Below are positions 24,916-45,527 of a stretch of DNA of 64,000 nt, piece by piece. The position numbers were made by a program, and so were the translations under genes. Positions within the stretch are counted from its first letter, which is position 1. Every line of letters begins with the position of its first letter. The stretch spans positions 14,464 to 78,463 of the forward strand of contig JBBTQY010000003.1 of assembly GCA_038065475.1 (NCBI GenBank), given 5' to 3'. Source of the stretch: Patescibacteria group bacterium. GTDB lineage: Bacteria; Patescibacteriota; Minisyncoccia; Ryanbacterales; GWA2-47-10b. Under the pieces are notes generated by a model. The model was not told the DNA's origin. It saw only the letters and a list, made by a program, of their open reading frames with translations, and ran no database searches.

Positions 24916-26004
24916 TTATCCTTGGGCTGTTTTCGCAATCGCACTATATACGCGCTGACTCATAGCGTCTTCGCTACAAAGACGCTCGAATAACTTATGC
25001 CCCTCGTGCATCACGTGCTCACGAATATCGGCATGATCGCGTATCCATAAAATTTTTTCTGCTAAAGCATTGGGGTCGTTGATGCGGCAAAAAAATGCAG
25101 TCTCACCATCATGAAAAAAATGCTCGACAACTGACACCTCGGGCGGGCCCGCGGTCAAAAACGGCTGGCCCATAGCGATTGTTTCGAAGGATTTATTGAG
25201 CAGATTCCGCCGCGCCTTTGGCGTATCGCCAAACATTCCGAGACAAAGATCGGCATCTTTACGTTGTGTAATCATTTCCTCATCAGAAAGACGCCTACTG
25301 ATAAGCTCCACATTTGAAAGCTTTAACTCCCGATGAAGCTTCTCAATCACCGAAGACAACTGCCCCTTACCTGCTATACGAAAAATAATATTGGTATCTT
25401 CCAACTGCTTTGCGGCGCGTAAGACGACATCGATCCCATGGACAGGACTTATCTCCCCGCAAAATTCGACGACGAATTTATCTTTATCAGCCGGCAATTT
25501 TTCTTGTACCCGTGGATAAAAAATGGTGCGATCTGCGCACATAGGAATCTCTACAAATCGATCCCGTGGCGTACCAAACGTCTCATGAATTCGGTCAGCG
25601 TGTATTGGATCGTGCACAACGATAACTGTTGATTTAGTATGCGCCTGCCGATCAAGCCACCACACAACGCGACATCGCCACGAACCGTGCATAAAAAGTT
25701 TTCGATCAACACACGCCCCATCATGAAGCTCTGTTTGGAGATCAAAAATGATAGGTTTTTTTGTAAATAAACGCAAAAACGGAACAATCGGATGGCCCAT
25801 CCATCCTACAAAAAATATATCATGCGAATACATCAAAAAAGGTAATCGTAAAAAAATACTGAGAAAACGGAGTGGGAAAGAATTTTGCTTCGATGCCAGC
25901 AGCGTCGTCTGATGCCGCTTCTTAAGAATTCGGTATTTTATGCGATTACTAGGGTAGCTTGGCGATGCGCCGCAGACAAAAAGTATCTTAGGCCTCTCGA
26001 TCAT
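24916..26004 (-). CDS. Glycosyltransferase family 4 (GT-B, glycosyl transferases group 1)
   Basis: C-terminal EFCGEISPVHGIDVVLRAA...GDTPKARRNLLNKSFETIAMGQPFLT (EX7E-type region). Start at the internal ATG (MIERPKILFV). Confidence 0.8.
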   Translation of the reverse strand: MIERPKILFVCGASPSYPSNRIKYRILKKRHQTTLLASKQNSFPLRFLSIFLRLPFLMYSHDIFFVGWMGHPIVPFLRLFTKKPIIFDLQTELHDGACVDRKLFMHGSWRCRVVWWLDRQAHTKSTVIVVHDPIHADRIHETFGTPRDRFVEIPMCADRTIFYPRVQEKLPADKDKFVVEFCGEISPVHGIDVVLRAAKQLEDTNIIFRIAGKGQLSSVIEKLHRELKLSNVELISRRLSDEEMITQRKDADLCLGMFGDTPKARRNLLNKSFETIAMGQPFLTAGPPEVSVVEHFFHDGETAFFCRINDPNALAEKILWIRDHADIREHVMHEGHKLFERLCSEDAMSQRVYSAIAKTAQG

Positions 26005-26908
26005 ATTTAGGCACGGTCGGGTCTGAACGATTGATAATCTCAGCGATAAGCCCCATGAGAATAAACTGGAAACCAATCAATATACATACTGCCGCGAGTA
26101 TCGGGAGTGGCGTGCGGATAAAATGAGTATCTTCAAAAACCTTGAGCCAGAGCGCCCACATGCCTGCTACGGCGCCGAGCAAAAAACTTGCAAAGCCTAC
26201 GGCTCCAAAAAAATGCATGGGACGGCGCGCATATTTATAAAAAAAGTGAAACGCGAGCACATCAAGTAATACCTTAAATGTACGCGAAATGCCGTATTTT
26301 GAAGTACCGAACTTGCGGGACTCAAAAGCAACGGGCATCTCGGCAACGCGTGCACCTTCGCGTTTAGCATATGCCACGATCATGCGATGCATATCACCCG
26401 TAAAATGCAGTCCTTCTAGAATCTCACGACGATATATCTTGAGCGTGCAACCATGATCGTGTAAGTGCACGCGCGTCACCAGCGAGATAAGGCGATTGGC
26501 AATCGCCGACGGAATACGCCGAGTAAATAGTTTTCCCTTCCAACGATCTTTACGCCATCCTGATACGATATCGTACCCTTCATCAAGCTTGGCTAGCAGG
26601 CGCGGAATATCACTCGGGCGGTTCTCGAGATCGCCGTCAAGCGTGATAATAACCTCTCCGCGGGATTCTCGCACGCCAACGCCCAATGCCGCAGTCTGGC
26701 CTGCGTTGCGTTTCAAACGAAGCAACAAAAGAGGCTTTATACCGCGCAATACATCGCTTGTTCCATCTGAAGATCCATCATCGACAAAAATAAGTTCGTA
26801 CGGTTTACCGAGAGCATCGAAAACGGAAATAAGCTCTTTATGCAACAAGGGAGCCGATTCCTTTTCATTATAGAGCGGCACAATAACTGAATACGTAGGT
26901 CGTTCCAT
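25988..26908 (-). CDS. GT2 polyprenyl-phosphate sugar synthase (Dpm1/ArnC/GtrB-like) with C-terminal TM helices
   Basis: YSVIVPLYNEKES...ELIFVDDGSSDGT...LDGDL motifs plus two C-terminal TM helices. Confidence 0.85.
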   Translation of the reverse strand: MERPTYSVIVPLYNEKESAPLLHKELISVFDALGKPYELIFVDDGSSDGTSDVLRGIKPLLLLRLKRNAGQTAALGVGVRESRGEVIITLDGDLENRPSDIPRLLAKLDEGYDIVSGWRKDRWKGKLFTRRIPSAIANRLISLVTRVHLHDHGCTLKIYRREILEGLHFTGDMHRMIVAYAKREGARVAEMPVAFESRKFGTSKYGISRTFKVLLDVLAFHFFYKYARRPMHFFGAVGFASFLLGAVAGMWALWLKVFEDTHFIRTPLPILAAVCILIGFQFILMGLIAEIINRSDPTVPKYDREA

Positions 26909-26929: not shown

Positions 26930-28246
26930 TCAAGAAAAAATCAAGCTTCCGGAACAAACTGCTTCTACTGCTTCTTTTACGTCAGTATAATGTGGATATT
27001 CTCTCAAGAGTACCTCACGCTCATCTTTGCAACTATATCCCGTCTTGACTCCGACAAATGCTATACCCGCGCGCTCTGCTGTTTTTGCATCGATAGTAGA
27101 ATCGCCAATCAACACACTTCGCGAGAGATCGATATTAAAATCTTTCACTGCCAACTCTATCATACCGATGCCAGGCTTTCGACACTCGCACGATACTTTT
27201 AACCCCTCCACCTCACCTGGGAACCCCTTTTCGGGATAATGCGGACACATATATATCGCATCTAACTTTGCACCTACAGCACCGAGTGTATTTTCAATCT
27301 TTATATTGATCTGCCTCGCTACTACATTAGTGACCAATCCCTTAGCGATCACTGGTTGATTCGTCACTAAAATTGCTAAATACTCCGTATCATTAATACG
27401 GCGTATCGCCTCTACAGCTTCCGGATACACATCACAATCCTCGGGGCGCGTAACACCGCCGATTTCTTTATTGATCACACCATCACGATCGAGAAAAATG
27501 GCGGGGCGCGGATACTCGCTGTTCATGCGAGATATCTTCCCCGCAGCGCAATCTCTCTCTGCTTCGCGCAAACGCTCAGGCGTACCAATATCTTTGAGAT
27601 ATTCAGCGGAATGATATGCGTATATCTCACCGCCATTTGCAAGAATACTTGGAAACACGTTTTTTTCGAGATCGGCAAAACCCTTAACTGGAATATATGA
27701 AAATATTTTTGGGGAAATAATGTATACGGACCCTACACTAAAATTTCCAACGAGCATGCCGGCATCACGGGGACGTGAATACAGCGCGGCAATTTTCCCC
27801 GACATATCCCGCTCAACGAGGTCGCTGTCATGCATATGATCAGTCGGGTGACCCAACACTGTCAGTGTTGCATTAGCGTGTTGTTGGTGCCATTTTTGAA
27901 ATCGTGGAATATTGACATCGAGCATGATATCGCCCGATAACAACAAAAAATCCTCGCGCATCTTATCGTGAAGCGCTCGCAACGCGCCAGCCGTGCCTTG
28001 CGGCTCATCTTCTGTAAGATACGAAATAGAAGCTCCCCACTGCAAACCATCATTACAATACTCGCGTATACTGCTTGCCTGATATCCCAGAAGTAATGTT
28101 ATATCTATAATACCATAACGTTTTAATAACAAAATCTGATGCTCAAGAATTGTTTTTCCTCCAATTAAAACAAGTGATTTTGGAGTATCTCGCGTGAGCT
28201 CCCCGAGACGTGTGCCACGCCCACCAGCTAAAATGACTGCTCTCAT
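26930..28246 (-). CDS. Bifunctional fusion: sugar-1-phosphate nucleotidylyltransferase (HddC-like heptose-1-P guanylyltransferase) joined to a HAD-IIIA D,D-heptose 1,7-bisphosphate phosphatase (GmhB-like)
   Basis: N-terminal MRAVILAGGRGTRLGELT...GTAGAL nucleotidyltransferase signature. C-terminal AIFLDRDGVINKE...CECRKPGIGM is the GmhB signature. Confidence 0.8.
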   Translation of the reverse strand: MRAVILAGGRGTRLGELTRDTPKSLVLIGGKTILEHQILLLKRYGIIDITLLLGYQASSIREYCNDGLQWGASISYLTEDEPQGTAGALRALHDKMREDFLLLSGDIMLDVNIPRFQKWHQQHANATLTVLGHPTDHMHDSDLVERDMSGKIAALYSRPRDAGMLVGNFSVGSVYIISPKIFSYIPVKGFADLEKNVFPSILANGGEIYAYHSAEYLKDIGTPERLREAERDCAAGKISRMNSEYPRPAIFLDRDGVINKEIGGVTRPEDCDVYPEAVEAIRRINDTEYLAILVTNQPVIAKGLVTNVVARQINIKIENTLGAVGAKLDAIYMCPHYPEKGFPGEVEGLKVSCECRKPGIGMIELAVKDFNIDLSRSVLIGDSTIDAKTAERAGIAFVGVKTGYSCKDEREVLLREYPHYTDVKEAVEAVCSGSLIFS

Positions 28247-29253
28247 GCGAGAAACTGTTCTGAATCTGGGTTCATGCTGTAAATAACCGTGCTACCCAAG
28301 TTTTCAAAACGAAAGGGAACGTGCAAATACTGCCCCAACTTTGCGCGAACACGCGATTGATCCTCTGGGCGGACAAACAACAGCATGAACCCTCCCCCGC
28401 CTGCACCCAAAAGCTTCCCTCCGATCGCCCCCGCGCTTTGCGCATCGGCATACATAGTATCAATCGCAGACGTTGAAATCTTTGACGTAAGACTGCGCTT
28501 AACGAGCCAACCTTCATGAAGCAGTTTTCCAAAGTCGTCGATGGATTCTGGGCTACCTTTTAAAATCTCATACGCCTCATCTACCATTGTACGCATACGC
28601 GTGAGCTCTTTTGCTTTTTGTGGTGTTGTCTTTATTTGTTCGGCAGCAATCTCAGAAGCATTGCGCGGATATCCAGTAAAAAATAACATCAATCTTCCGT
28701 GGAAAATACGCATGCTCTCTTGTGAAATATCCACTGGCTCCACCCTCAATTCATCCTGCCCACCAAAGTATATTTTATTCAAACCACCAAATGCTGCAGC
28801 AACTTGATCTTGAGAGCCGACATTTTCCTTGATCATGTTCTGCTCAACATGAATGGCACTGCGAGCTAAAGCATCTTTTGATATTGTCTTACCTTCAAGT
28901 GCATGAAGAGCATTGAGAAATCCAACAGTAAATGCCGAGCTTGATCCGATACCTGACATGCCAGGCACGTCAGTGTTGTGCTGCATCTCGATACCTTGAT
29001 CGAAGGTAAGATGCGCAAGACACTCGCGCACTGATGGATGCTGAATATCAGCGAGAGCATTTACTTCTTCTTGGCGACCGTAGCGAATACGATATTTGCA
29101 GTCAAAAAACGGCGGGAGATATCTCGTCGTAATATAACAATATTTATCAATTGTCGCCGATAACACCGCCCCCCCGTGTTCTCGATACCATATAGGATAA
29201 TCCGTGCCCCCACCGAAAAAGGAGATGCGAAACGGCGTACGCGTAATAACCAT
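28243..29253 (-). CDS. hddA: GHMP-family sugar kinase (D-glycero-alpha-D-manno-heptose 7-phosphate kinase, HddA-like)
   Basis: FFGGGTDYP...PGMSGIGSSSAFTVG is the GHMP motif. True start is the internal ATG at 29253 (MVITRTPF). The longer track ORF is an alternate-frame read-through over the radical-SAM gene. Confidence 0.8.
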   Translation of the reverse strand: MVITRTPFRISFFGGGTDYPIWYREHGGAVLSATIDKYCYITTRYLPPFFDCKYRIRYGRQEEVNALADIQHPSVRECLAHLTFDQGIEMQHNTDVPGMSGIGSSSAFTVGFLNALHALEGKTISKDALARSAIHVEQNMIKENVGSQDQVAAAFGGLNKIYFGGQDELRVEPVDISQESMRIFHGRLMLFFTGYPRNASEIAAEQIKTTPQKAKELTRMRTMVDEAYEILKGSPESIDDFGKLLHEGWLVKRSLTSKISTSAIDTMYADAQSAGAIGGKLLGAGGGGFMLLFVRPEDQSRVRAKLGQYLHVPFRFENLGSTVIYSMNPDSEQFLA

Positions 29254-29285
29254 TGAAGTTACCTTACGCTTTTTAGCGTATTTTT

Positions 29286-29326: not shown

Positions 29327-31300
29327 CTAGTAGTGCCCCTCTCGTTCGAGGTTCGCAGCCGTACCGTAGAGGTAGGCGCCCTTCTTGTTGCCATACCACA
29401 CGACGTGCTGCATCCAGTCTTCCCACGTCGACCATTGTTCCGTGGTGCGATCGATATGGTGCCACACCATACACTCTTTAAGATCCACCGCTTCGGATCC
29501 TTCGAGCATACGGCGCGCCGAATGGTAGACCCCCCACACATTGTAACGAAGTGAGAGATCGACATCTTTGGTCTGAAAAGGAAGTTTGACAAGACTCTGG
29601 TTGAGCAGAACCGCATCCGCAAGAAGTAGTGCGGGAATCGTAACGGAACGCTCCGAGAAGAAACGAGCGAGAAGAGAGCTAGCTTCTTGGTAAAACGCGG
29701 AGAGCTTACCCTCACGCGCGAGCTTGATGAAGACGTACTCGTCCGGCGGCCAGTAGACATTGAGCCACTCTGGTGCCGGACATTGCTCGATATCGCCTCC
29801 TTGGATACGCCGTGCCTTCTCTTGGAAAAAGGCGCGGATCTCCGAGAGAACCGGATATCCTGCGAGCGATCCTTCGGTGAACACCTCGATGAGCTCCCGA
29901 TACGAGACACCCGTCGTCTTTTGAAGAACCACGAGTGGTATCTGAAAAAGCTTGTCGAAGTGAAGAAGTGCGGTCATCCAGGAAAAGACACGCGCCCTGA
30001 CCCAGTCTTCGCGTGGCATCGCGTTAGTTGCGACGACCAAGTCTTCGTACTCACGAATCTGATCCGGCGTCGTATCGATGACGCCATGGTAGATGACAGC
30101 TTCGACTGATACCGACTGAATGCCGAATTGTGCCTGATAGTCAGGATTACCCATCTCAGCATTTGGCAAGATGGAACAGTTGCTGAACTGGATCCGATTG
30201 TGCTGACCCGATTCGATCGCCTCCGATACTCCGGCGACGAACGTTTCGTAGGTCTCTCCCGGCAGCGCGAGAATCAAATCGCTATACGTCTCGATGCCCG
30301 CGGCGGTAAACCGCTTTTGCAGGCGACGAAAATCTTCGAGCGAAATATTCCGACGCTTGATGGATTCGAGCGTGACCGGATCAAGAGATTGGAACGCGAG
30401 CGTCACCCCCTTGTTGAGGCCGGCGTCTGCGAGAATCTTCTGCGCCTGAAAGATGCGCTCTTCTGCGTTCTTCGCGTTCTGTACGGAGAGCGCGTGAGGA
30501 TACCCTAGGCGCGCCTTCACGCTCGCTGCATACCGTGCGATCTCAACATCCCGAGGGAAAATGCCGAAGTTCGCATCGCAGCAAAACATGAACTCGATAC
30601 GATGGGCAGCGACCCACTCGAGCTCGGCGTAGAGGCGACTTTCATCAAACCTAAACACCTTACTCGCAATCGCAGAACCCCAATCGCAAAATGTGCATGC
30701 GAACGGGCATCCGCGATTTGTCTCCCACAGAAACAACCACTGCTCTTCGGGATGTTCAGCCATAAGTTGGCTAAACACGCCGGAGGTGTAGGGAGACGGA
30801 ATGAGTGAAAGATCGGGAATGCGCGGCATGCGCTCGTTTTGCACGTACCGTCCTTCTTCGTCGATGAAGCTCGTCGAAGGAATGTCGTGCCAATCGCGCA
30901 CGGATGCGCGCTCGAGCACGCGTGTGAACACCTGCTCGCCTTCATTGTGACACGCGACATCCACCCATGGATGCGCGCGCAAGAACAACTCTGACCGATC
31001 GGGTACCTGTGGTCCGCCGAAGACGATGATCACGGCGGGGTTTTGCTCTTTGAGCTGTCGCGCGATCTCGAGCGAGATATTTTGATTCCAGACATAGAGA
31101 CTGAAACCTACGATATCCGCGCTACGAAGCGCTTCGAGGGCATCATCAAGCGCGATGCGCTTGTAGAGCGGTGGGAGAAATTCGTACTCATGAGATGCGG
31201 CGAGGTGCTGTTGGGCATACGCCTGCAATATCCCTACGGAGTACGGAAGATAGTTTTGTCCTGAGAAACTGTTGTTGATCTGTACGAGTCCGACTCTCAT
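29327..31300 (-). CDS. Cobalamin(B12)-binding radical SAM enzyme (class B radical SAM) with a C-terminal extension of about 250 aa
   Basis: N-terminal B12-binding region, then the radical SAM cluster motif CPFACTFC (CxxxCxxC). Total length 657 aa. SD AAAGGAGG lies 9 nt upstream of the ATG. GC-rich. Confidence 0.85.
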   Translation of the reverse strand: MRVGLVQINNSFSGQNYLPYSVGILQAYAQQHLAASHEYEFLPPLYKRIALDDALEALRSADIVGFSLYVWNQNISLEIARQLKEQNPAVIIVFGGPQVPDRSELFLRAHPWVDVACHNEGEQVFTRVLERASVRDWHDIPSTSFIDEEGRYVQNERMPRIPDLSLIPSPYTSGVFSQLMAEHPEEQWLFLWETNRGCPFACTFCDWGSAIASKVFRFDESRLYAELEWVAAHRIEFMFCCDANFGIFPRDVEIARYAASVKARLGYPHALSVQNAKNAEERIFQAQKILADAGLNKGVTLAFQSLDPVTLESIKRRNISLEDFRRLQKRFTAAGIETYSDLILALPGETYETFVAGVSEAIESGQHNRIQFSNCSILPNAEMGNPDYQAQFGIQSVSVEAVIYHGVIDTTPDQIREYEDLVVATNAMPREDWVRARVFSWMTALLHFDKLFQIPLVVLQKTTGVSYRELIEVFTEGSLAGYPVLSEIRAFFQEKARRIQGGDIEQCPAPEWLNVYWPPDEYVFIKLAREGKLSAFYQEASSLLARFFSERSVTIPALLLADAVLLNQSLVKLPFQTKDVDLSLRYNVWGVYHSARRMLEGSEAVDLKECMVWHHIDRTTEQWSTWEDWMQHVVWYGNKKGAYLYGTAANLEREGHY

Positions 31301-31342
31301 CAGTACTTTCCTCCTTTCATTTTTTTAAGGTTCGTACTGGTG

Positions 31343-31371
31343 TTCCTGTGTCAATAAACCAATAAAATAGT
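31343..31371 (-). promoter_or_regulatory. Putative sigma70-like promoter TTGACA-N17-TTTATT for the radical-SAM gene
   Basis: Consensus -35 with a 17-nt spacer, about 35 nt upstream of the SD and ATG. It lies between an upstream terminator and the gene. Confidence 0.4.
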
Positions 31372-31390
31372 ATTTTGTCAATATTCCTCA

Positions 31391-31424
31391 AAAAGAAAAG
31401 CAGGGGCCCCGTGAGGAGTCCCTG
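31391..31424 (-). terminator. Putative intrinsic terminator after the methyltransferase gene
   Basis: GC-rich hairpin CAGGG-(GGGGCCCC-containing loop)-CCCTG followed by CTTTTCTTTTT on the minus strand. Confidence 0.35.
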
Positions 31425-31448
31425 ATGTTTGATGGCGTGCCTTTTTTT

Positions 31449-32393
31449 TCATAAAGGCCGCCACACGATGTAGGAGTACGCGTCGTGATAGAGATTGCCG
31501 AAATGCACCCGTTGCACGCGCTCAAGCTCGATACGGCCTTGGCCTTCGAGCTCGCGAAGCCGCGTCAAGTATCCCGACAAATAGTTGCGTTTGCGAGAAA
31601 ACTGCAGCGCGAGCGCATCAGTCACCTGCGTCGGATCGTAAAGCTCCTCGATCCCGTCAACATGCACGAAGCACACGCATGGGTGTTCGAGTACCGACTG
31701 GATGAAGGGTTCGAATGCTCCACCGACTTGCTCGAGTGCATGAAATGCCAAGAGCGCATCGCTCGGCGCATGATCCATACGCACTGATGGAGCGAAAAGA
31801 TCGAAGACATCGCCCCGCACATTCCACCCACATCCTGTACGCATGACCTCGATTATGTCACGCGACGCTTCCGCCCAATCGTACCCGAAGAGTTTCTTTT
31901 CGGGATACATCACGGCGAGCGTCGCGAGATTCATTCCAGAACCGCATCCGAACTCGTGTATTGCCGAGGCGTTGGCGAAATACTTTTCGAACAGCCATCG
32001 GCAAAACACCTGACGCACGTTGAGCTCGAAGAGATTGCTCGCCGGCTCAATGTACTCGCCGAATAGCCGTACAGGCGCCCCAGGCCGATCATAGTACTTC
32101 GGCACGAGAGCACGAATGTTGTAGCCACTCGCCTTGAAGTCGACCAGATTCTCTGACCATCCTTCTTGCCAGCGAGGCTGTCTTCCTCGCCCCGCGGGCG
32201 CGAGACTTGGTGTATCTTCGCCGAGCCTTTCCTGGATCATCGCTATGATTTCAGATTGTCGCGATGCAGAAAGATGAGAGAATCGAAAGTCGGTCAAAAA
32301 AATCATCGCCTGCACTGCGGGCGAGAAATCGTCAACCGTCACCCCGAATAACCGGGCGAAATCACCTATCCTGAGCGTATCCATCTTGCCCAT
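31449..32393 (-). CDS. Class I SAM-dependent methyltransferase (sugar methyltransferase candidate) with an N-terminal extension of about 120 aa
   Basis: Motif I IHEFGCGSGMNL. The start ATG is in a TGATG overlap with the upstream reductase stop, so the two are translationally coupled. GC-rich. Confidence 0.7.
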   Translation of the reverse strand: MGKMDTLRIGDFARLFGVTVDDFSPAVQAMIFLTDFRFSHLSASRQSEIIAMIQERLGEDTPSLAPAGRGRQPRWQEGWSENLVDFKASGYNIRALVPKYYDRPGAPVRLFGEYIEPASNLFELNVRQVFCRWLFEKYFANASAIHEFGCGSGMNLATLAVMYPEKKLFGYDWAEASRDIIEVMRTGCGWNVRGDVFDLFAPSVRMDHAPSDALLAFHALEQVGGAFEPFIQSVLEHPCVCFVHVDGIEELYDPTQVTDALALQFSRKRNYLSGYLTRLRELEGQGRIELERVQRVHFGNLYHDAYSYIVWRPL

Positions 32394-33343
32394 CAGTGAG
32401 CACCTTGCCTTTCTCGATACCACGCGATTGTTTCTCGGAGACCGTCTCGCAAAGAAACCGCGGGACGAAATCCGATCGACTCTGCGCGTGTCGTATCCAT
32501 CACTCGTATCTGATCGCCTTCCGACTGTTCACCATCCCACACAATCGCGGGATCTTCGCCAGCCTCTTGGCAGATGATCGCGAGTAGTTCATAAATTGAA
32601 ACGCCCGTACCGCTACCGAGATTGACCGGATCGACAATACCTCGCTCGGCGACAAGCATCATCCCACGCGCAACATCGCGCGCGTGTACGAAGTCTCGTA
32701 TCTCGGTACCGTCGCCCCTCACCCGAACTGGGAATTCGCGGCTGACAACTTTGCGTACAAATGAAGGAACGACCATCGCCGCGTCTGACTCGAAGTCGTC
32801 GTGCGGGCCGTAGGTATTGGCTGGACGTACGATTGAAATAGCGTCCCAACCGTACTCAATGCGGTATGCCTCCGCCTGAAGCTCCCCCGCGCGCTTTGCG
32901 CACGCAGGAAAACGATCATTGCGTGGAAGTGGCGTGCGCCAGACATCGTCTTCACAGAAGATTGGAGCTGTATCGTACACGCCCAGAGAACTCGTGAAGA
33001 GAAATCCTTCGACGTCGCTCCGGCGCGCCGCTTCCATGAGATTCGTGTTGAACATGAGCTGCGGCACGAGCAGGTGCGCGGGCCGCGCCTTCACGGCTGC
33101 GGGTGAACCTTTCACACACAGCAGATTGAAAACGTACTCCATGCTGCTGCATGCCTGCATGCAGTTACCGAAATCCGTCAGATCGAGCCTTCGAAACTCG
33201 GCATCGGGATGTGCCAACGTCGCATCACCAAGTGACACGATGCGGACATACGCCCCCGCACGAATCAGAAGCTCGACGAGCGGGATACCGATAAGGCCGG
33301 TGCCGCCTGCGACAAGCACGTGCTTGCCTTTGAAATCAAACAT
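32393..33343 (-). CDS. NAD(P)-dependent epimerase/reductase of the GDP-L-fucose synthase (Fcl/WcaG, extended SDR) family
   Basis: Rossmann HVLVAGGTGLIG. PANTYGPHDDFESDAAMVVPSFVRK resembles the Fcl NLYGPHDNF...SHVIPALIRK region. Confidence 0.75.
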   Translation of the reverse strand: MFDFKGKHVLVAGGTGLIGIPLVELLIRAGAYVRIVSLGDATLAHPDAEFRRLDLTDFGNCMQACSSMEYVFNLLCVKGSPAAVKARPAHLLVPQLMFNTNLMEAARRSDVEGFLFTSSLGVYDTAPIFCEDDVWRTPLPRNDRFPACAKRAGELQAEAYRIEYGWDAISIVRPANTYGPHDDFESDAAMVVPSFVRKVVSREFPVRVRGDGTEIRDFVHARDVARGMMLVAERGIVDPVNLGSGTGVSIYELLAIICQEAGEDPAIVWDGEQSEGDQIRVMDTTRAESIGFRPAVSLRDGLRETIAWYRERQGAH

Positions 33344-34312
33344 TCACAACTCCTCTGGGCAAACCTGCTTGTACCAAGCAAGCGTTTGCTCGATACCTTG
33401 ATCGAGAGTGACGCGCGGACTCCACCCGTAGATTTCCCGCGCTTTAGTGATGTCGAAACATACCTTGGTCGGTATGGTGGGTTTTGAACGATCGTACGTC
33501 ACACCAAGAGTCTTCTCTGAAGCCTTGATGATACGCATGACCAGTTCCCCGATCGACACCGCGGTTCCTGCGGCGACATTAACAACGTCGTGCGGAGGAA
33601 GTGACCCTTGCCGAACATGATCGATGACGCTCGAAATGAACGCACACAGATCGCTCACGTAGAGCAGGTCTCGTTCTGGAGATCCGTCTCCCCACACGGA
33701 AAGATCTTCTCCATCCCGTGCGGCCATGATCTTGGCGACTGTCGCGCCAAAAACATGGGAATGTTCGAGATCGAACTTGTCGTGCGGTCCGTACACGTTT
33801 GATGGACGAACTACCGTGTAGCGTGTCCGACCGAGACGTGAATAGAACTCGGCGAGCTTTTCCGCGCAGATCTTCATCCAGCCAACACCGAAGTAGTTGG
33901 GGAAAAAACCATCACGCAGATCTACATCGCCTTCTGCAAACACATGAGCGGCAGTTCGCTGCGGGTATACGACACCCGAGCTCAGAAAGATCACGTGTCC
34001 GACACCCGCGTTGTGCGCCGCTTCAAACAGCAACGTATTGATGATGATGTTGCCTGCGACGTGCATTTCAGGATGATTGATGATGTCGCTCGAACCAGAA
34101 CTTTTTGCCGCGGCATGCACAATGACGTCCGTACCGCGAACAGCGGTGGCAACCTGCTGCCTATCAGTCAGATCAACCCGACGCGTGCCCGAGAGCACAC
34201 GACTGTTTGTCAGACCGACAACATCGATGTCATCACGCCCCTGCAATGCCTCGTGTATGTTGCGCCCGATGAAGCCGGACGCACCCGTAACAAGCACCCG
34301 TAACTTCTCCAT
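33344..34312 (-). CDS. Second Fcl-like NAD(P)-dependent sugar epimerase/reductase (extended SDR)
   Basis: VLVTGASGFIG and RPSNVYGPHDKFDLEHSHVFGATVAKI. Tandem paralog of the downstream gene. SD AAGGAGG lies 7 nt upstream. Confidence 0.75.
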   Translation of the reverse strand: MEKLRVLVTGASGFIGRNIHEALQGRDDIDVVGLTNSRVLSGTRRVDLTDRQQVATAVRGTDVIVHAAAKSSGSSDIINHPEMHVAGNIIINTLLFEAAHNAGVGHVIFLSSGVVYPQRTAAHVFAEGDVDLRDGFFPNYFGVGWMKICAEKLAEFYSRLGRTRYTVVRPSNVYGPHDKFDLEHSHVFGATVAKIMAARDGEDLSVWGDGSPERDLLYVSDLCAFISSVIDHVRQGSLPPHDVVNVAAGTAVSIGELVMRIIKASEKTLGVTYDRSKPTIPTKVCFDITKAREIYGWSPRVTLDQGIEQTLAWYKQVCPEEL

Positions 34313-34376: not shown

Positions 34377-35438
34377 CTAAAAGGGGCCTTTGAATTTACG
34401 TTCGTAGCTATAAAAATTTTCTTTCGTAAGATCGGTGGGTGTCAGTTTAAGCTGACGCTCTACCTCTCTAATGATAGTCTCAGCTCCCGGATAGAAAACC
34501 ATCTCGAGTGGGCGCGTGCACGGGCATGGAGTGTCGGCAAAATGAATGCGTCCAACTGGCGCGCGCAATACGCCAAAACATTTTTCCGAGACACGCGCAG
34601 CTATCTCAGCACCAAACCCACAAAATCCCCAATCATAGTCAGCGACAATGCAACGTTTTGTTTTTTGTACGGAACGTACGATTGTTTTTTCATCAAGTGG
34701 CACGAGTGTGCGCGGATCGACAATCTCTATCTCAACGCCACGACGCGCAAGGACTTCTGCCGCTCGGAGCGCTTCGACGTTCATCCACGATGTCGCAACA
34801 ACGGTGATATCTTTGCCACGACGCAGCACATGCGCCTTACCAAACGGCATTGGCTCCTGGCGCGCAGGAACTTTATCAATCGCGTCATAAAGCCACCGAT
34901 GTTCAATAATCAATACTGGATTATCATCACGGATTGCCGTGATGAGTAAACCCTTTGCATCCTCGGGTGTCGTTGGCATCACCACCTTCAACCCTGGAAT
35001 ATGCGCGAAGACAGATTGCATGCTTTTATTGTGCTGGTATGACTGGCCCCATCCCCTACCGATAACCGCGCGAATCACCATCGGCACTTTCATCTGTCCG
35101 CCTGATCCGTAGTGCCAGCTTGAAACCATATTTGAGAGTTGATTCATCGCGAGCAATAAAAAATCGATGCGCATATGTACGTTGATGGGTCGCAACCCCG
35201 CGAGGGCAGATCCGAGACCAAACCCGACGAGCGCCTCCTCACACAGAGGCGTACTAAATGATCGCTTTGCGCCAAACTTTTCAGCCAAACCTGCGGTCGT
35301 ACCAAAAATACCTTTGTGATCGGCAATATCAATACCATAGACAAAAACATTTTTATCTCTCTTCATCTCCTGTACCGTCGCCTCGCAAATCGCGTCCCGA
35401 TAACTCAGCATTTTTGACTGAATATTTTTTTTATCCAT
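34377..35438 (-). CDS. Thiamine-diphosphate-dependent E1 component beta subunit-like (transketolase-like pyrimidine-binding and C-terminal domains)
   Basis: KNVFVYGIDIAD...GIFGTTAGLAEKFG is the E1-beta N-terminal signature. Start ATG lies 2 nt after the alpha-subunit stop. Confidence 0.8.
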   Translation of the reverse strand: MDKKNIQSKMLSYRDAICEATVQEMKRDKNVFVYGIDIADHKGIFGTTAGLAEKFGAKRSFSTPLCEEALVGFGLGSALAGLRPINVHMRIDFLLLAMNQLSNMVSSWHYGSGGQMKVPMVIRAVIGRGWGQSYQHNKSMQSVFAHIPGLKVVMPTTPEDAKGLLITAIRDDNPVLIIEHRWLYDAIDKVPARQEPMPFGKAHVLRRGKDITVVATSWMNVEALRAAEVLARRGVEIEIVDPRTLVPLDEKTIVRSVQKTKRCIVADYDWGFCGFGAEIAARVSEKCFGVLRAPVGRIHFADTPCPCTRPLEMVFYPGAETIIREVERQLKLTPTDLTKENFYSYERKFKGPF

Positions 35439-36393
35439 AGAAAACATCTTGATATAATTCAGCATTGGCGGGAAACGGGGCGCGCTGTGCTTTACGGACA
35501 GCGCCAGCAATAGCCTGCTCAATGTCTTTCTCGATACCTAGGATTTTTGATTCTGAAAGGCCTTGTCGAATCAAACGTGCGCGCTGTAATTTTACCGGAT
35601 CGTGTTTTTCCCATACATCAAATTCCTTGCGCCCCCGATACCCAACATCAAAATCAGTATTGATCCCCACATGCTCCAAGTATCGATAATACTGCGTACT
35701 TAAAAAAACGGGCCTTTTATTTTTCTGTAATAATCGCATCGCTTTTTGTGTCGCTGCATATATCTTTTCTACATCCGTACTTTTTTCCTCAATCACCGTG
35801 CATTCAAATTTGGAAACAATAGCATCGAGTGAGCGGTACCCATGACGTCGTTCTTTTGGATTGTGTACCGCCAAACCATTGTCTTCGTAGACGAAAAGTG
35901 CCGGGATGCCGAGCGCGGCGCTCATATTTAAAGACTCCCAAAAAACACCTTCATCGACAGCACCGTCACCGAAAAAAGTCGCGGCGATAGTTTTTTTCTT
36001 CTTATATATATTGGCAAACGCCGCACCTACCGCAAGTGGTAGAGTACTCGCGACAATAGCGGAAGCTCCGAAAAAACCTGCGGATGGCGCAGAAAGATGC
36101 ATAGAACCCGCCTTTCCTTTCGCATTACCGGTACGCTTTCCGTACAGTTCCGCAAAAAAAGTATCTGCCTCACCGGTGCGCGCGAGATATACCGCGTGAC
36201 TTCTATATGAAGAAAATACTTGAGCATCCTTCCCAAGCGCATGACACACCCCGACCGAAATCGCCTCACCCCCCATAGACATATGCATGGGCGTCTTCAT
36301 GTCGTCCTCAAGATAGTGCGCAATAATAGCCTGTTCAGAAGCCCTGACAAGATAGAGTGCTTTATAGAGTTTAATACTAAGTTCTGATTTCAT
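35431..36393 (-). CDS. Thiamine-diphosphate-dependent E1 component alpha subunit-like (pyruvate/acetoin dehydrogenase E1-alpha family)
   Basis: TPP-binding FFGDGAVDEGVFWESLNMSA plus the YRSHAV...G region. Start at the internal ATG (MKSELSIKLY). Confidence 0.8.
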   Translation of the reverse strand: MKSELSIKLYKALYLVRASEQAIIAHYLEDDMKTPMHMSMGGEAISVGVCHALGKDAQVFSSYRSHAVYLARTGEADTFFAELYGKRTGNAKGKAGSMHLSAPSAGFFGASAIVASTLPLAVGAAFANIYKKKKTIAATFFGDGAVDEGVFWESLNMSAALGIPALFVYEDNGLAVHNPKERRHGYRSLDAIVSKFECTVIEEKSTDVEKIYAATQKAMRLLQKNKRPVFLSTQYYRYLEHVGINTDFDVGYRGRKEFDVWEKHDPVKLQRARLIRQGLSESKILGIEKDIEQAIAGAVRKAQRAPFPANAELYQDVFYG

Positions 36394-36511: not shown

Positions 36512-37090
36512 ATGCGCATAAAACCGCTCGTTAAAGTTGGAAGGCCAGTCGAACTTACCAAACGCTTCTTCGGAAAAGCGATGGTGAGACAATCCTATCG
36601 ACGCCGCAACAATGGCACGATAGAAGACTACTACTTTTTCGGTCACAGCTCTCAGTGGGCATCCATCGTATTCCCACTCACGCCTACAGACGAAGTGGTC
36701 GCCATCCGGCAGTTCAGGCCTGCGGTCGGCAAAGCGATTCTCGAATTGCCTGGGGGAACCCTGGAGGACGAGGCGACGCCGGAGATAGTGGCGCGCCAAG
36801 AACTCACCGAGGAAACGGGCTACGTAGCGCGAGAACTTCTAGCTCTCACACCGCAACCGATCTTCATTGAGCCCGCAAACACGGCGCTCTCCTACCACCT
36901 CTATCTCGCGACTGGATGTCTACCGACTGGTGAACAAAGCCTTTCGCCTACCGAAGATATAGAGGTCGTGCTCATGCCGCTTCGCACATGGATACAGAAG
37001 ATTCGACGTGGCCATATCCAAGACGGCCGAAGTATCGTGGCGACCTTTCTCGCACTACCCCACCTCAAGGCGTGGGCTGGGCTCGTATGA
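36512..37090 (+). CDS. Nudix hydrolase (nucleoside-diphosphate-sugar/ADP-ribose pyrophosphatase-like)
   Basis: Nudix box GGTLEDEATPEIVARQELTEETGY. Confidence 0.75.
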   Translation: MRIKPLVKVGRPVELTKRFFGKAMVRQSYRRRNNGTIEDYYFFGHSSQWASIVFPLTPTDEVVAIRQFRPAVGKAILELPGGTLEDEATPEIVARQELTEETGYVARELLALTPQPIFIEPANTALSYHLYLATGCLPTGEQSLSPTEDIEVVLMPLRTWIQKIRRGHIQDGRSIVATFLALPHLKAWAGLV

Positions 37091-37102
37091 ATACGAGCCC
37101 TT

Positions 37103-37597
37103 TTATATAGTTTTTTTAATTTTTTCTATAATGCTCGTGGTTGAAATATTTTCAAATTCGGGTGGACACCAACGATCAAGCATGACAAACTGTATCTTAT
37201 GTTTTTTAGCAATCTCTTCCCGATAGGATAGATCGAAGGCATCCTTATTGACGACATACACGTCCGGATGGAGTCCCGCGAACAACGGCTCAAGATAAGC
37301 GTTCAAATTATCTGCAGGCACCGGACCATCGAATAAGACATAATCAACGGGCTTGAGCGAATCAACCATCTTGATACGCACCTCTTCATTCAGTATCGGG
37401 CGGCCGCTCTTATATTTTTTAATATTTTCATCACATCCAACCACGACGACTAAAATATCGCCGTACTTTTTGCACTCATCAAAAAAAAGCGCGTGACCTG
37501 CATGAGTCAAATCAAACACGCCCGAACAAAAAATAATCTTTTTGTTCTTGTGTGTCTCGCGAATATTTGGTAAGTCAGTATATGTGATGCGCGCCAT
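37103..37597 (-). CDS. Cytidylyltransferase-family nucleotidyltransferase (TagD glycerol-3-phosphate cytidylyltransferase / HldE domain II-like)
   Basis: IIFCSGVFDLTHAGHALFFDECKKYGDILVVVVGCDENI (HxGH motif) and a C-terminal ISTTSIIEKIKK that resembles the TagD C-terminus. Start at the internal ATG (MARITYTDL). Confidence 0.75.
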   Translation of the reverse strand: MARITYTDLPNIRETHKNKKIIFCSGVFDLTHAGHALFFDECKKYGDILVVVVGCDENIKKYKSGRPILNEEVRIKMVDSLKPVDYVLFDGPVPADNLNAYLEPLFAGLHPDVYVVNKDAFDLSYREEIAKKHKIQFVMLDRWCPPEFENISTTSIIEKIKKTI

Positions 37598-37684
37598 CGT
37601 GACTGTTATGGTACTGAAAAATATTGCTAACGACAACTTGATAAAAAAATGGGGGGGTGACGCCACCCCCCCTTCCTGCGTACC

Positions 37685-38215
37685 TCATGATTTAACGAAA
37701 GATGCGTCTCCAGTCTGATCTCTCTGCGAGAGAATCGGGTTGGCGATCGGCCACCAGATGCCGAAAGCGGGATCGTTCCATAGAATTGTGAATTGCGCCC
37801 CCGCGCCCTGATAGTAGGTCGACTGCTTGTAGTGGAAGATCGCCTCGCCGCTCATGACCAAGTGTCCATTGCCGAACTTCGGTGGGACGAGCACCTGCAG
37901 TCCATTCGTGTCAGACAGTGTGAACGACTCCCACTGCAGAAACTGCGCGGAATCCGGATCGTTGTTGACCACGACGAGGTAGAACGAACCGTACAGGCAC
38001 GAGATCAACTTCCATGTCTTGTCATCACCGTGAATGCCGCGAAGCACTCCGTGAGACGACCTCGAGATGTCATCTTGCACGAACTCGACGTGCGCGCCGA
38101 GTTGATCGTAGATCTTCCGGTGATAAATCTCGCGGTACCGACCGCGAAAATCTTCGAACGCTTCAGTTTCGAAGCACATCACGCCATCGAGTCTACATGC
38201 GCGTAGCTTGATCAT
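37685..38215 (-). CDS. Cupin-fold nucleotide-sugar 3,5-epimerase (RmlC-like; cf. heptose epimerases DdahB/MlghB)
   Basis: FEDFRGRYREIY...SRSSHGVLRGIHG matches the RmlC active-site region. GC-rich. Confidence 0.75.
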   Translation of the reverse strand: MIKLRACRLDGVMCFETEAFEDFRGRYREIYHRKIYDQLGAHVEFVQDDISRSSHGVLRGIHGDDKTWKLISCLYGSFYLVVVNNDPDSAQFLQWESFTLSDTNGLQVLVPPKFGNGHLVMSGEAIFHYKQSTYYQGAGAQFTILWNDPAFGIWWPIANPILSQRDQTGDASFVKS

Positions 38216-39210
38216 ACGCTCCTCCGGGCATTGGCGTAGTGCTCACGCCAGTAGTTGAGCGTGTCGATGATGGTCTGCTCAAACGGGATCTCCGGCGCCC
38301 ATCCCGTCATCGCCACGAATTTCTCGATGGACGGAATCTGGAGCGTGACATCCGACGGACGTAGGCGCGCGGGATCGACTTCCACACGAATACGTTTTCC
38401 CGTCGAATACGAGAGAAGTCTGTCGAGCATCTCCCGTATCGTCATCGTAACGCTACCGCCGATGTTGTAGACGTCGCCCGGTTTGCACCGCTCGACGAGA
38501 AGCCAGTATGCTCGCACCGCGTCACGCACATCCATCCACGTACGAACGCTGTCGAGATTGCCGACCTTCAACACGGGCTTCTGGACCCCTGCCTCGATGG
38601 CGGCGATCTGCTTTGCAAAACTCGACAGGGCAAACACCTCGCCGCGACGCGGGCCCGTATGCGTGAACATACGAGTACGAATCGTGCGGATCTGCCAGCT
38701 CAGCCAGTATTGCAGAGCGATCATGTCTTCGCCCACCTTGCTCACCGCATAGGGCGAGGCGGGACGAAACGGGTTCTCCTCCTTGATGGGAACCTCGTCT
38801 GACCTCACCTGCCCATAGACTTCAGATGAACTGCAGATGTGGATGATGGGGTCGTACGATCGCGCGTCCTTCTGCTCACGCACTACCTCGAGAAGGTTTG
38901 ATGTCCCGAGGACGTTGGTCGCCAGCGTTGCCCCAGGGGCACGGAAACTGAAATCGACATACGACTGCGCCGCGAGGTGAAAGATCACCCCGGGCGAGTG
39001 GCGCGCCAAGATCGTTCTGAGCGACGAGAGGTCGCTGAGATCTCCATACTCGAGCGTCACGCGATCCAAGATGTGCGCGATGTTGTCCTTGGGAGAGCGC
39101 CAACGCACAAGTCCGACGATCTTGGTGTCGTGGTGGTGCTCGAGAATGTAGTCAGCCAAATGGCTTCCCACAAATCCCGTGATACCGGTTATCAGTACAC
39201 ACTTCTTCAT
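38212..39210 (-). CDS. NAD-dependent nucleotide-sugar 4,6-dehydratase/reductase of the GDP-mannose 4,6-dehydratase/Rmd clade (candidate GDP-heptose 4,6-dehydratase)
   Basis: MKKCVLITGITGFVGSHLADYIL Rossmann region and a YAVSK catalytic region. There is a 4-nt overlap with the epimerase. GC-rich. SD AAGGAGG lies upstream. Confidence 0.8.
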   Translation of the reverse strand: MKKCVLITGITGFVGSHLADYILEHHHDTKIVGLVRWRSPKDNIAHILDRVTLEYGDLSDLSSLRTILARHSPGVIFHLAAQSYVDFSFRAPGATLATNVLGTSNLLEVVREQKDARSYDPIIHICSSSEVYGQVRSDEVPIKEENPFRPASPYAVSKVGEDMIALQYWLSWQIRTIRTRMFTHTGPRRGEVFALSSFAKQIAAIEAGVQKPVLKVGNLDSVRTWMDVRDAVRAYWLLVERCKPGDVYNIGGSVTMTIREMLDRLLSYSTGKRIRVEVDPARLRPSDVTLQIPSIEKFVAMTGWAPEIPFEQTIIDTLNYWREHYANARRSV

Positions 39211-43900: not shown

Positions 43901-44815
43901 ATGCCAAAGGTATCAGTAATCATACCAACCCATAACCGCGCTCACCTCCTTCCTCGCGCACTCGACAGCGTGCTATCGCAAAGCTACAAAGATATGGAGA
44001 TTATTATCGTCGACGATGGGTCGAGTGACGAGACGCCTGCCGTTATCGCTCGCTATACCGACCCACGCATCCGAACCATACGATACGAAACACCACAAGG
44101 AATACCGACGGTACGCAATCGCGGCATGCAAGAGGCTCGCGGCGAATATATCGCATGGCAAGACGATGACGATGAGTGGCTCCCCGGGAAGCTGGAGAAA
44201 CAAGTAGCAAAAATGGAAACGCTCTCTGAAGAATACGGGGTCGTCTATTCAGCGTATTGGCGCATGCGCAAAGATGGAACGCGCGCTTTTTTCCCACCAC
44301 GCTGGGTACAACCCCAAGAAGGTGACCTCTATAAAGTATTTCTGAAAAAAAACTTTTTATGCCTCCAATCAATGCTTATGCGAAAAAAAGTTTTTGAAAC
44401 CGTCGGAGGACTCGATAAACGATTCCCCGTACTTCAAGAATATGATTGGTTCCCAAAAATCGCCGAACGTTTTCAGTTTGCTTATATCCCAGAGCCGCTG
44501 ACGCTTTTGCATCATACGCCAAAATCAAATTCACAAAACAACACTCTTAACGCATTTGCTCGAGAATTATTTATACAAGATAGGTATCCTGACCTTCTAC
44601 GATTCAAATTTCTCGGATACCATTATGGACTCATCGGCGATCTTTATATGGGAGATAAAAAACCATGGCGCGCTGCAACTTTTCTTTGGAAATCAGTACG
44701 GCACGAACCTTTCCGTGCGCGACATTGGGTAAAAGCGCTCTGTGCGTCTTGTGGAATTAATTATTTAAAGCTCAAAATATATCTACCTACAGGCAAAAGG
44801 CGATTTAAAATATGA
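43901..44815 (+). CDS. GT2 (GT-A fold) glycosyltransferase
   Basis: VSVIIPTHNRAHLLPRALDSVLSQSY...IIVDDGSSDET and the DDDDEW (DxD) motif. Confidence 0.8.
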   Translation: MPKVSVIIPTHNRAHLLPRALDSVLSQSYKDMEIIIVDDGSSDETPAVIARYTDPRIRTIRYETPQGIPTVRNRGMQEARGEYIAWQDDDDEWLPGKLEKQVAKMETLSEEYGVVYSAYWRMRKDGTRAFFPPRWVQPQEGDLYKVFLKKNFLCLQSMLMRKKVFETVGGLDKRFPVLQEYDWFPKIAERFQFAYIPEPLTLLHHTPKSNSQNNTLNAFARELFIQDRYPDLLRFKFLGYHYGLIGDLYMGDKKPWRAATFLWKSVRHEPFRARHWVKALCASCGINYLKLKIYLPTGKRRFKI

Positions 44816-45522: not shown

Positions 45523-45527
45523 ATATT

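Follow-up and report, generated by a model that had tools for sequence, protein, structure and literature searches.

A dehydrogenase E1-like alpha/beta pair in a Patescibacteria surface-glycan locus as a putative sugar-branching enzyme

Pairs of thiamine diphosphate (ThDP)-dependent proteins resembling the alpha and beta chains of the E1 component of 2-oxoacid dehydrogenases have been described in antibiotic biosynthesis. In a 2025 review these pairs are designated 'alpha-keto acid dehydrogenase 2', or alpha-KADH2 for short, and they add a pyruvate-derived two-carbon (C2) branch to keto sugars in the pathways leading to avilamycin, paulomycin, aldgamycin, kosinostatin, trioxacarcin, and kibdelomycin (PMC12247030). 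An in vitro characterisation exists for KbDH-alpha/beta, predictions extend to about 120 gene clusters, and the alpha-KADH2 enzymes characterised to date employ pyruvate as the donor and form C2 branches only; acetoin:dichlorophenolindophenol oxidoreductase also ligates onto ketones (PMC12247030). In the biosynthesis of paulomycin, attachment of the acetyl branch at C4 has been assigned to Pau11/Pau12 (= Plm8/Plm9), and reduction of the branch ketone to Pau7, an aldo-keto reductase (AKR) (PMC4753412, PMC4802897). Here we describe an E1 alpha/beta gene pair from a Patescibacteria group bacterium, found in a stretch of 64,000 nucleotides (contig JBBTQY010000003.1, positions 14,464 to 78,463; hereafter the window). 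The pair lies in a large glycan locus, and it very probably serves in nucleotide-sugar tailoring, not in a dehydrogenase complex. The kind of enzyme is already known from the antibiotic pathways; what appears new, in the literature searched, is its occurrence in the context of putative surface heptose glycans in uncultivated microbes.

Like AviB1/B2, Pau11/12, KbDH, and the corresponding proteins of aldgamycin and kosinostatin biosynthesis, the pair is encoded by adjacent E1 alpha- and E1 beta-like genes, has no E2 or E3 gene beside it, and is accompanied by a 4,6-dehydratase and an epimerase, as in a deoxysugar cluster. AviB1/B2, Pau11/12, and KbDH add a C2 acetyl branch to a nucleoside diphosphate (NDP)-keto sugar, which is followed by a ketoreductase; the window pair is likened to them by gene organisation, not by sequence clustering. 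They belong to secondary-metabolite clusters of Actinomycetota and act on deoxyhexoses, whereas the pair described here is found in a surface-glycan locus of a Patescibacteria genome together with genes of the GDP-heptose type, and members of its clade come from many phyla, most of these organisms being uncultivated.

Among the sugars of lipopolysaccharides (LPS), the known branching enzymes are of the unrelated YerE/ErwE type (PMC9306805). These enzymes, associated with yersiniose, erwiniose, and caryophyllose, also add an acyl anion to an NDP-4-keto-deoxysugar in the setting of LPS or a surface polysaccharide, and a reductase (YerF/ErwF) acts next. However, YerE is a single chain of the decarboxylase/acetolactate synthase (ALS) superfamily (TPP_enzyme_N/M/C) with a CDP-sugar substrate, while the window pair has the E1 architecture. 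The split transketolases of miharamycin and amipurimycin biosynthesis likewise depend on ThDP and consist of two subunits, and for them the addition of a C2 unit to a keto sugar (hydroxyacetylation) has been proposed. The alpha subunit in the window differs from them in matching E1_dh and not Transketolase_N (PF00456), whereas the genuine split transketolase subunits of related loci do match PF00456 and are encoded by extra genes in 21 of 72 loci. The genes flanking the pair are most similar to those of the Campylobacter jejuni GDP-heptose pathway (7US5; 8DCL/8DCO/7M14; C4 reductases), and HddA-, GmhB-, and HddC-like genes are found here too. That pathway is not known to contain a ThDP-dependent step, and it ends in C4 reduction; in the present case, the dehydratase is followed at once by a ThDP enzyme. 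In the literature searched there was no account of this E1 clade, of its coupling to a heptose-type dehydratase, or of how widely it occurs among uncultivated lineages in loci for surface glycans.

The E1 alpha/beta pair

The two genes and their characteristic features are as follows.

36393..35431, minus strand: E1 alpha, the ThDP-binding subunit (320 aa; PF00676 E1_dh, E value 5.8e-49)
35438..34377, minus strand: E1 beta (353 aa; Transket_pyr, E value 5.5e-32, and Transketolase_C, E value 1.2e-32)
35878..35970, minus strand: ThDP/Mg motif of E1 alpha, G142-D143-G144 ... E170-D171-N172 (read off the sequence)
35431..35438, minus strand: 8-nt overlap of the beta ATG and the alpha stop, ATGGATAA (read off the sequence)
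34380..34448, minus strand: conserved tail at the C-terminus of E1 beta (residues 331-353), with F-K-G-P-F as its last residues

The domain matches of both proteins are far above the chance level. In E1 alpha, GDGAVDEGVFWESLNMSA corresponds to residues 142-159, and E170-D171-N172 further on completes the GDG...N signature for ThDP and Mg, whose positions are invariant across 22 aligned members of the family. The original prediction, made from the sequence of the window, of an E1 alpha subunit with a ThDP motif and a transketolase-like beta partner is thus confirmed. It had also placed the start of beta 2 nt past the alpha stop. This does not hold, as the beta ATG (35438-35436) precedes the alpha TAA (35433-35431) and 8 nt are common to both genes, but the tight coupling that it had deduced still stands. 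In related loci, beta is likewise called by gene callers as overlapping the 3' end of alpha, and the NCBI entries for the identical proteins (MEK7649513.1 for alpha and MEK7649512.1 for beta) have the same start codons.

The closest solved relative of E1 alpha is the human pyruvate dehydrogenase (PDH) E1 alpha (30% identity; E value 1.2e-33), and those of E1 beta are the PDH E1 beta subunits of human and Geobacillus stearothermophilus (38-39% identity; E value ~1e-66). The closest complex-type relatives on plasmids are E1 proteins of the acetoin type, with 46% identity for beta. Compared with the E1 of 2-oxoacid dehydrogenases (1NI4, 1W85), the fold, the domain order, the ThDP motif, the activating Glu, and the two active-site His residues are the same. 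Thus, beta-E67 aligns to the cofactor-activating E59-beta of 1W85, beta-H136 aligns to H128-beta, and alpha-H241 aligns to the His that human E1 alpha has just before its phosphorylation site at Ser-264. None of these three residues varies in the family alignments. The scores, the absence of E2 and E3 genes nearby, and an extra FKGPF tail on beta are the differences. E1 alpha reaches 250 bits with the PDH E1 alpha model TIGR03182 (cutoff 393.85) and 142 bits with TIGR03181 (cutoff 411), while E1 beta reaches 317.7 bits with NF006667, just below the cutoff of 321, and 299.7 bits with NF008854 (cutoff 454).

The tail extends E1 beta by some 21-26 aa beyond the point at which PDH E1 beta ends in human and in G. 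stearothermophilus, and neither of those proteins has it. In complex-forming E1 proteins the binding domain of E2 docks on the two-fold axis; the E1 beta described here differs in carrying these additional residues. The tail terminates in F-K/R-G-P-F across the family, and each of the 48 members compared has F349, G351, P352, and F353, among them a paralog with 39% identity. It is also found in the homolog from an Azospirillum lipoferum plasmid. The E1 beta from a sugar locus of Solidesulfovibrio magneticus, a more distant homolog, has no such tail; the tail is therefore not universal in sugar-locus pairs and was not used to define function. The sequences L093:12001-13071, L094:14998-16032, and L095:11947-12996 served in the comparison of the tail (L numbers designate the loci and sequences compared with the window).

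Conserved neighbourhood and the search for E2 and E3

Relatives of the pair are widespread. A protein search yielded at least 120 clusters with 55-98% identity (E value ≤ 1.6e-116), and at least 522 genomes encode an E1 alpha relative in a scan of one genome per species. The best 80 relatives (48-60% identity) are from Patescibacteria, Omnitrophota, Chloroflexota, Planctomycetota, several classes of Proteobacteria, Acidobacteriota, Elusimicrobia, and two archaea. Cultured carriers with pairs in glycan loci include Azospirillum lipoferum 4B, on plasmid AZO_p6 (AZOLI_RS29260/RS29255; tailed), and Solidesulfovibrio magneticus RS-1, on plasmid pDMC1 (DMR_RS21995/RS22000; distant and tail-less). 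Neighbourhoods were counted in 72 independent loci, in which open reading frames (ORFs) were called and clustered and the cluster representatives annotated by Pfam and NCBIfam. The nucleotide-sugar enzymes that recur include short-chain dehydrogenases/reductases (SDRs), and one family, U324, consists of methyltransferase-like proteins.

E1 beta directly downstream of alpha: 64/72 loci
Nucleotide-sugar SDR at most 8 genes away: 67/72
SDR as the immediate upstream neighbour: 38/72
RmlC-like protein: 31/72
GHMP kinase: 28/72
U324 family: 26/72, and 4 more fused to a transketolase C subunit
Split transketolase N subunit: 21/72
Split transketolase C subunit: 16/72
B12 radical S-adenosylmethionine (SAM) proteins, two families: 20/72 and 12/72
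adh_short: 18/72
AKR: 17/72
Nudix: 15/72, immediate upstream neighbour in 11
DegT: 14/72, with two copies in the window
ALS/YerE-like protein as a separate gene: 4/72

The conserved partner is a 4,6-dehydratase-like SDR, which in the window lies at 38212..39210. Its orthologs (mean identity 68%) are directly upstream of E1 alpha in 33 of the 72 loci and no more than 4 genes upstream in 50, and in related loci the dehydratase and E1 alpha genes overlap. Dehydratase, E1 alpha, and E1 beta hence form a conserved module. The possibility that orthologous pairs occur broadly outside glycan loci, which would speak against a role in sugar metabolism, was also checked; this is not so, given the nucleotide-sugar SDR near the pair in 67 loci.

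Pfam scans, which covered the neighbouring genes and all ORFs of at least 300 aa in the 64-kb window, turned up neither E2 nor E3. Likewise, a six-frame scan of 1.49 Mb, comprising 82 loci (81 related loci and the window), gave zero occurrences of the E2 catalytic motif and of the E3 redox motif. As a positive control, the same patterns detect both proteins in the Priestia pdhABC-lpdA operon, where E2 and E3 adjoin, and they pick up a small lipoyl protein beside the Thermus acoAB pair. The lipoyl-lysine expression is insensitive and missed the E2 of the Priestia control; its six matches in the 82 loci were dismissed, being located in unrelated long ORFs. The original statement that no lipoyl-E2 or E3 lies nearby is accordingly borne out in the window and in the homologous loci.

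Some related loci are more elaborate. L017 and L032 have two E1 pairs each; the second pair of L032 is divergent (43% identity for alpha and 39% for beta to the window) and keeps the KGPF tail, which suggests two ThDP-dependent branching steps in one pathway. In L003/L005 (Patescibacteria metagenome-assembled genome, JBBTSB010000003.1, 8292-19364), E1 alpha/beta, a split transketolase, and an ALS/YerE-like protein are encoded in one locus along with a DmpG-like aldolase, an acetaldehyde dehydrogenase, and AKR, SIS, and HAD genes. The aldolase/dehydrogenase pair of this locus resembles ErwI/ErwJ of the erwiniose pathway (PMC9306805).

The glycan locus in the window

Approximately 12.5-60 kb of the window is a single large glycan locus, in which we found genes for an initiating sugar transferase, for proteins of the Wzy and Wzx types, for numerous glycosyltransferases (GT1, GT2, and PMT_2), for two DegT aminotransferases, and, as a separate gene (54524-55597), a bona fide GDP-mannose 4,6-dehydratase (511 bits). 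The E1 pair is the head of a minus-strand operon that continues with two GDP-fucose-synthase-like SDRs, the methyltransferase-like protein, a B12 radical SAM protein, an HddA-like kinase, and a nucleotidyltransferase/GmhB-like fusion, and ends in GT2 and GT1 glycosyltransferases. Upstream of E1 alpha are a divergent Nudix gene, a cytidylyltransferase-like gene, an RmlC-like epimerase, and then the 332-aa SDR. The flanks given in the original prediction, sugar reductases on one side and a Nudix hydrolase and a cytidylyltransferase on the other, are correct: the two SDRs are downstream, and the Nudix (plus strand) and cytidylyltransferase-like genes upstream.

38212..39210, minus strand: NDP-sugar 4,6-dehydratase-like SDR, 332 aa (best structure 7US5, E value 2.4e-90)
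37685..38215, minus strand: RmlC-like 3/3,5-epimerase (PF00908, E value 2.3e-43)
37103..37666, minus strand: cytidylyltransferase-like protein, closest to RfaE domain II (PF01467, E value 4.1e-17; TIGR02199, 76.6 bits, sub-cutoff)
36512..37090, plus strand: Nudix hydrolase, divergent from E1 alpha (PF00293; nearest models NudE and NudK, sub-cutoff)
33344..34312, minus strand: GDP-fucose-synthase-like SDR 1, candidate ketoreductase (PF01370; E. coli GDP-fucose synthetase, E value 1.9e-34)
32393..33343, minus strand: GDP-fucose-synthase-like SDR 2, candidate ketoreductase (PF01370; GDP-L-fucose synthases, E value 1.2e-29)
31449..32390, minus strand: methyltransferase-like protein of the ~310-aa family U324 (no Pfam, NCBIfam, or PDB match)
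29327..31300, minus strand: B12-binding radical SAM protein of the KedN5-like C-methyltransferase subfamily (PF02310 and PF04055; NF033712, 266 bits, sub-cutoff)
28243..29256, minus strand: GHMP kinase, closest to HddA, heptose 7-phosphate kinase (GHMP_kinases_N/_C; NF049969 best with 130 bits, sub-cutoff)
26930..28246, minus strand: fusion of a sugar-1-phosphate nucleotidyltransferase and a GmhB-like heptose bisphosphate phosphatase (NTP_transferase and HAD)
24916..26908, minus strand: GT2 and GT1 glycosyltransferases at the operon end (PF00535, PF00534)

The best structural match of the 332-aa SDR, 7US5, is the C. jejuni GDP-D-glycero-D-manno-heptose 4,6-dehydratase. The Ser, Tyr, and Lys residues are conserved in this protein, which probably supplies the 4-keto sugar. 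The top structures for the RmlC-like protein include the C. jejuni GDP-4-keto-heptose 3- and 3,5-epimerases (8DCL, 8DAK, 8DCO, and 7M14; E value ~1e-34), which match it better than does the RmlC of dTDP-rhamnose synthesis. The fusion protein matches the GmhB model NF006506 with 129.6 bits, as well as models for mannose-1-phosphate guanylyltransferase and HddC. Together with the HddA-like kinase, these matches make the neighbours of the pair look like a pathway for GDP-heptose activation and formation of a 4-keto-6-deoxy intermediate.

Both GDP-fucose-synthase-like SDRs are without a Tyr at the usual YxxxK position, the residue being displaced in SDR 1. The orthologs of SDR 1 have the motif Y-F-G-x-G-W-x-K, and those of SDR 2 have Y/F-x-G-x-A-K, with Phe in the window copy. 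Judged from these motifs, the two SDRs may not be ordinary C4 reductases. Near E1 there are 42 orthologs of SDR 2 (at least 38% identity), mostly 2-7 genes downstream of E1 beta. The U324 family carries a SAM-binding motif of the EFGCGSG type, and in the four loci where it forms one protein with a split transketolase's C subunit there is a weak Methyltransf_25 match (L022:12748-14691); this fusion suggests a functional tie to ThDP-dependent steps.

The combination of a Nudix and a cytidylyl/adenylyltransferase-like gene recurs beside E1 in the window (36512-37666) and in L001, L012, L078, and L084. It is possible that the two proteins hydrolyse an NDP-sugar and then re-activate it with a different nucleotide. 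The GC content of positions 30001-34000, which include the radical SAM, methyltransferase-like, and SDR genes, is 54-56%, as against 43-52% in most of the window, and hints at a separate acquisition of this part of the operon. Elsewhere in the window, two 236-aa ORFs at 44812-46211 (plus strand), within the glycan locus, correspond to a VTC (polyphosphate-polymerase-like) protein and a DUF4956 membrane protein by synteny with L001, and a 787-aa protein with CotH kinase and right-handed beta-helix regions is encoded at 20531-22894 (plus strand), beside several PMT_2 glycosyltransferases.

Proposed reaction and competing explanations

We propose that the pair forms a free-standing alpha2beta2 ThDP carboligase which would add a pyruvate-derived C2 branch to C4 of the 4-keto sugar made by the dehydratase, a prediction to which we assign a probability of roughly 60%. 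In the proposed pathway, the HddA-like kinase and the GmhB/nucleotidyltransferase fusion would activate a heptose to GDP-D-glycero-D-manno-heptose or a close analogue, from which the DmhA-like 4,6-dehydratase would generate an NDP-6-deoxy-4-keto sugar. The RmlC-like enzyme may then epimerise C3 and/or C5. Decarboxylation of pyruvate by E1 alpha/beta would yield hydroxyethylidene-ThDP, the carbanion of which would attack the C4 carbonyl to give a 4-C-acetyl tertiary alcohol, i.e., a two-carbon branch. Residues alpha-H241 and beta-H136, whose counterparts in PDH protonate the dithiolane, would here protonate the acceptor oxygen. The branch or ring carbonyl would subsequently be reduced by the two GDP-fucose-synthase-like SDRs, and the methyltransferase-like and B12 radical SAM proteins would decorate the sugar further before the glycosyltransferases and Wzx/Wzy of the locus incorporate it into a surface glycan.

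The close and often overlapping coupling to the dehydratase points to its 4-keto product as the substrate of E1. The recurrence of AKR, adh_short, and GDP-fucose-synthase-like SDRs, and of the methyltransferase-like and B12 radical SAM families, fits tailoring after branching. Candidate ketoreductases for the branch are the two SDRs directly downstream in the window and the AKR (17/72) and adh_short (18/72) proteins of related loci. It had originally been suggested that the pair performs a transketolase-like C2 transfer onto a sugar and not a step of central metabolism. The assignment to sugar metabolism is supported by every computational test available, including the sugar setting of 67 of the 72 loci, the absence of E2 and E3, and the literature precedent. 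The transketolase-like part fits less well: a decarboxylative carboligation of the acyloin type, from pyruvate, describes the proposed chemistry better than ketol transfer. In 21 of the 72 loci, a genuine split transketolase is encoded apart from the pair.

Several observations weigh against the proposed branching at C4 or against parts of the scheme. Should the two GDP-fucose-synthase-like SDRs simply reduce C4, they would compete for the same 4-keto intermediate, which would suggest a branching site other than C4. A search of the window for a GmhA/SIS gene gave no match, and the heptose assignment thus rests on similarity scores below the curated cutoffs. In G. stearothermophilus, alpha-H271 and beta-H128 participate in the reductive acylation of lipoamide (PMC2663715); both of these His residues are retained here, so the sequence is compatible with a lipoyl partner. 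Finally, there are more distant stand-alone E1 pairs on Streptomyces plasmids (39% identity for alpha and 48% for beta). That of S. griseofuscus, from an annotated record, is in a polyketide synthase/nonribosomal peptide synthetase (PKS/NRPS) setting, adjoined by condensation-domain, acyl carrier protein (ACP), and phosphopantetheinyl transferase (PPTase) genes, and its E1 beta ends in G-F-A-G-P-Y, which resembles the FKGPF tail. On the S. albogriseolus plasmid, the record of which is unannotated, no homologs of sugar genes were found up to 15 kb from the pair. These plasmid pairs were considered as a link to the antibiotic sugar clusters and rejected on account of their settings, and they indicate that a stand-alone E1 pair does not by itself mean sugar branching.

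A ThDP enzyme of the sugar pathway with a different chemistry is a rather unlikely alternative, yet one that deserves weight. It might use another donor, act at another carbonyl (C3 after isomerisation, or an aldehyde, in a DXS-like extension to a 1-deoxy-ketose), or catalyze a C-C cleavage or decarboxylation of a keto-acid sugar. E1 alpha does show a weak DXP_synthase_N match, and the GDP-fucose-synthase-like SDRs could be the true consumers of the C4 ketone. The weight of this explanation comes from the related loci, many of which bring together ThDP enzymes of three kinds, with different donors side by side: E1 co-occurs with a split transketolase in 21 of the 72 loci and with an ALS/YerE-like protein in 4, and in L003 there is also the DmpFG-like pair resembling ErwI/J (PMC9306805). 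On the other hand, the coupling to the dehydratase, often by overlapping genes, argues for the 4-keto product, the window has no keto-acid-sugar synthase, and the characterised alpha-KADH2 enzymes are restricted to pyruvate and C2 branches (PMC12247030).

That the pair is instead a conventional E1 from a dehydrogenase complex for pyruvate, acetoin, or branched-chain 2-oxoacids, with E2 and E3 encoded elsewhere and an incidental position among glycan genes, is very improbable. The full E1 architecture, the retained lipoyl-acylation His residues, and a beta score only just short of the PDH E1 beta cutoff are compatible with it, and the search of the source genome for E2 and E3 covered the 64-kb window. 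However, the sugar setting holds for 67 of the 72 loci across more than ten phyla, no E2 or E3 signature occurs in 1.49 Mb, and a real pdh operon has adjoining E2 and E3 genes that the same motifs detect; furthermore, E1 alpha is far under both PDH equivalog cutoffs, and beta carries a conserved extra C-terminal tail. Patescibacteria, moreover, are not generally known to have 2-oxoacid dehydrogenase complexes linked to the tricarboxylic acid cycle. Equally hard to credit is the transfer of an acyl or hydroxyalkyl group to a carrier protein or other acceptor, leading to acyl decoration of an amino sugar made by DegT. Such a transfer is the presumed role of stand-alone E1 pairs in PKS/NRPS clusters, the S. 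griseofuscus pair and its ACP neighbour being an example, the S. albogriseolus pair, in its unannotated record, has no sugar-gene homolog within 15 kb either, and DegT is found in 14 of the 72 loci and twice in the window. Nevertheless, no ACP, lipoyl, condensation, or acyltransferase partner recurs beside the pair in the 72 loci or the window, and its conserved partner is the dehydratase.

Returning to the proposed carboligase, a broader picture can be put forward tentatively. The dehydratase, E1 alpha, and E1 beta could be the core of a widespread, horizontally moving, and so far unrecognised cassette that builds multiply C-branched or higher-carbon heptoses on cell surfaces and to which further genes are often added, for a split transketolase, for ALS-like lyases, for B12 radical SAM proteins, for the methyltransferase-like family, and for AKRs. 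It might be distributed over Patescibacteria, Omnitrophota, Chloroflexota, Planctomycetota, some archaea, and possibly large viruses, and its products might be new to carbohydrate chemistry. Equally tentative is the idea that the FKGPF tail is an adaptation which turned a complex-bound E1 into a free-standing carboligase.

The assignment bears on annotation, as the current labels 'dehydrogenase E1 component' and 'pyruvate/acetoin dehydrogenase' could be misread as pyruvate oxidation in reduced genomes such as those of Patescibacteria and DPANN, and in lists of viral auxiliary genes. For glycobiology, it predicts C-branched sugars of the heptose type in the surface glycans of hundreds of uncultivated lineages, none of which has a known glycan structure. 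Biocatalysis has a demand for ThDP enzymes that accept ketones and thereby form chiral tertiary alcohols, and the clade would provide hundreds of diverse candidates. The two cultured carriers, A. lipoferum 4B and S. magneticus RS-1, could serve to test the function.

The same cassette is also seen in six contigs classified as viral in IMG/VR (L087-L092; 124-548 kb with a GC content of 31-38%, and one of 15.7 kb with 56%). They encode an ortholog of the dehydratase (60-68% identity) together with E1 alpha and E1 beta, and these genes are followed either by split transketolase, methyltransferase-like, and AKR genes or by adh_short, SDR, radical SAM, and RmlC genes. A 'pyruvate dehydrogenase' has been reported among the auxiliary genes of DPANN viruses in a groundwater virome (PMC12960796), and we speculate that it belongs to the same E1 family.

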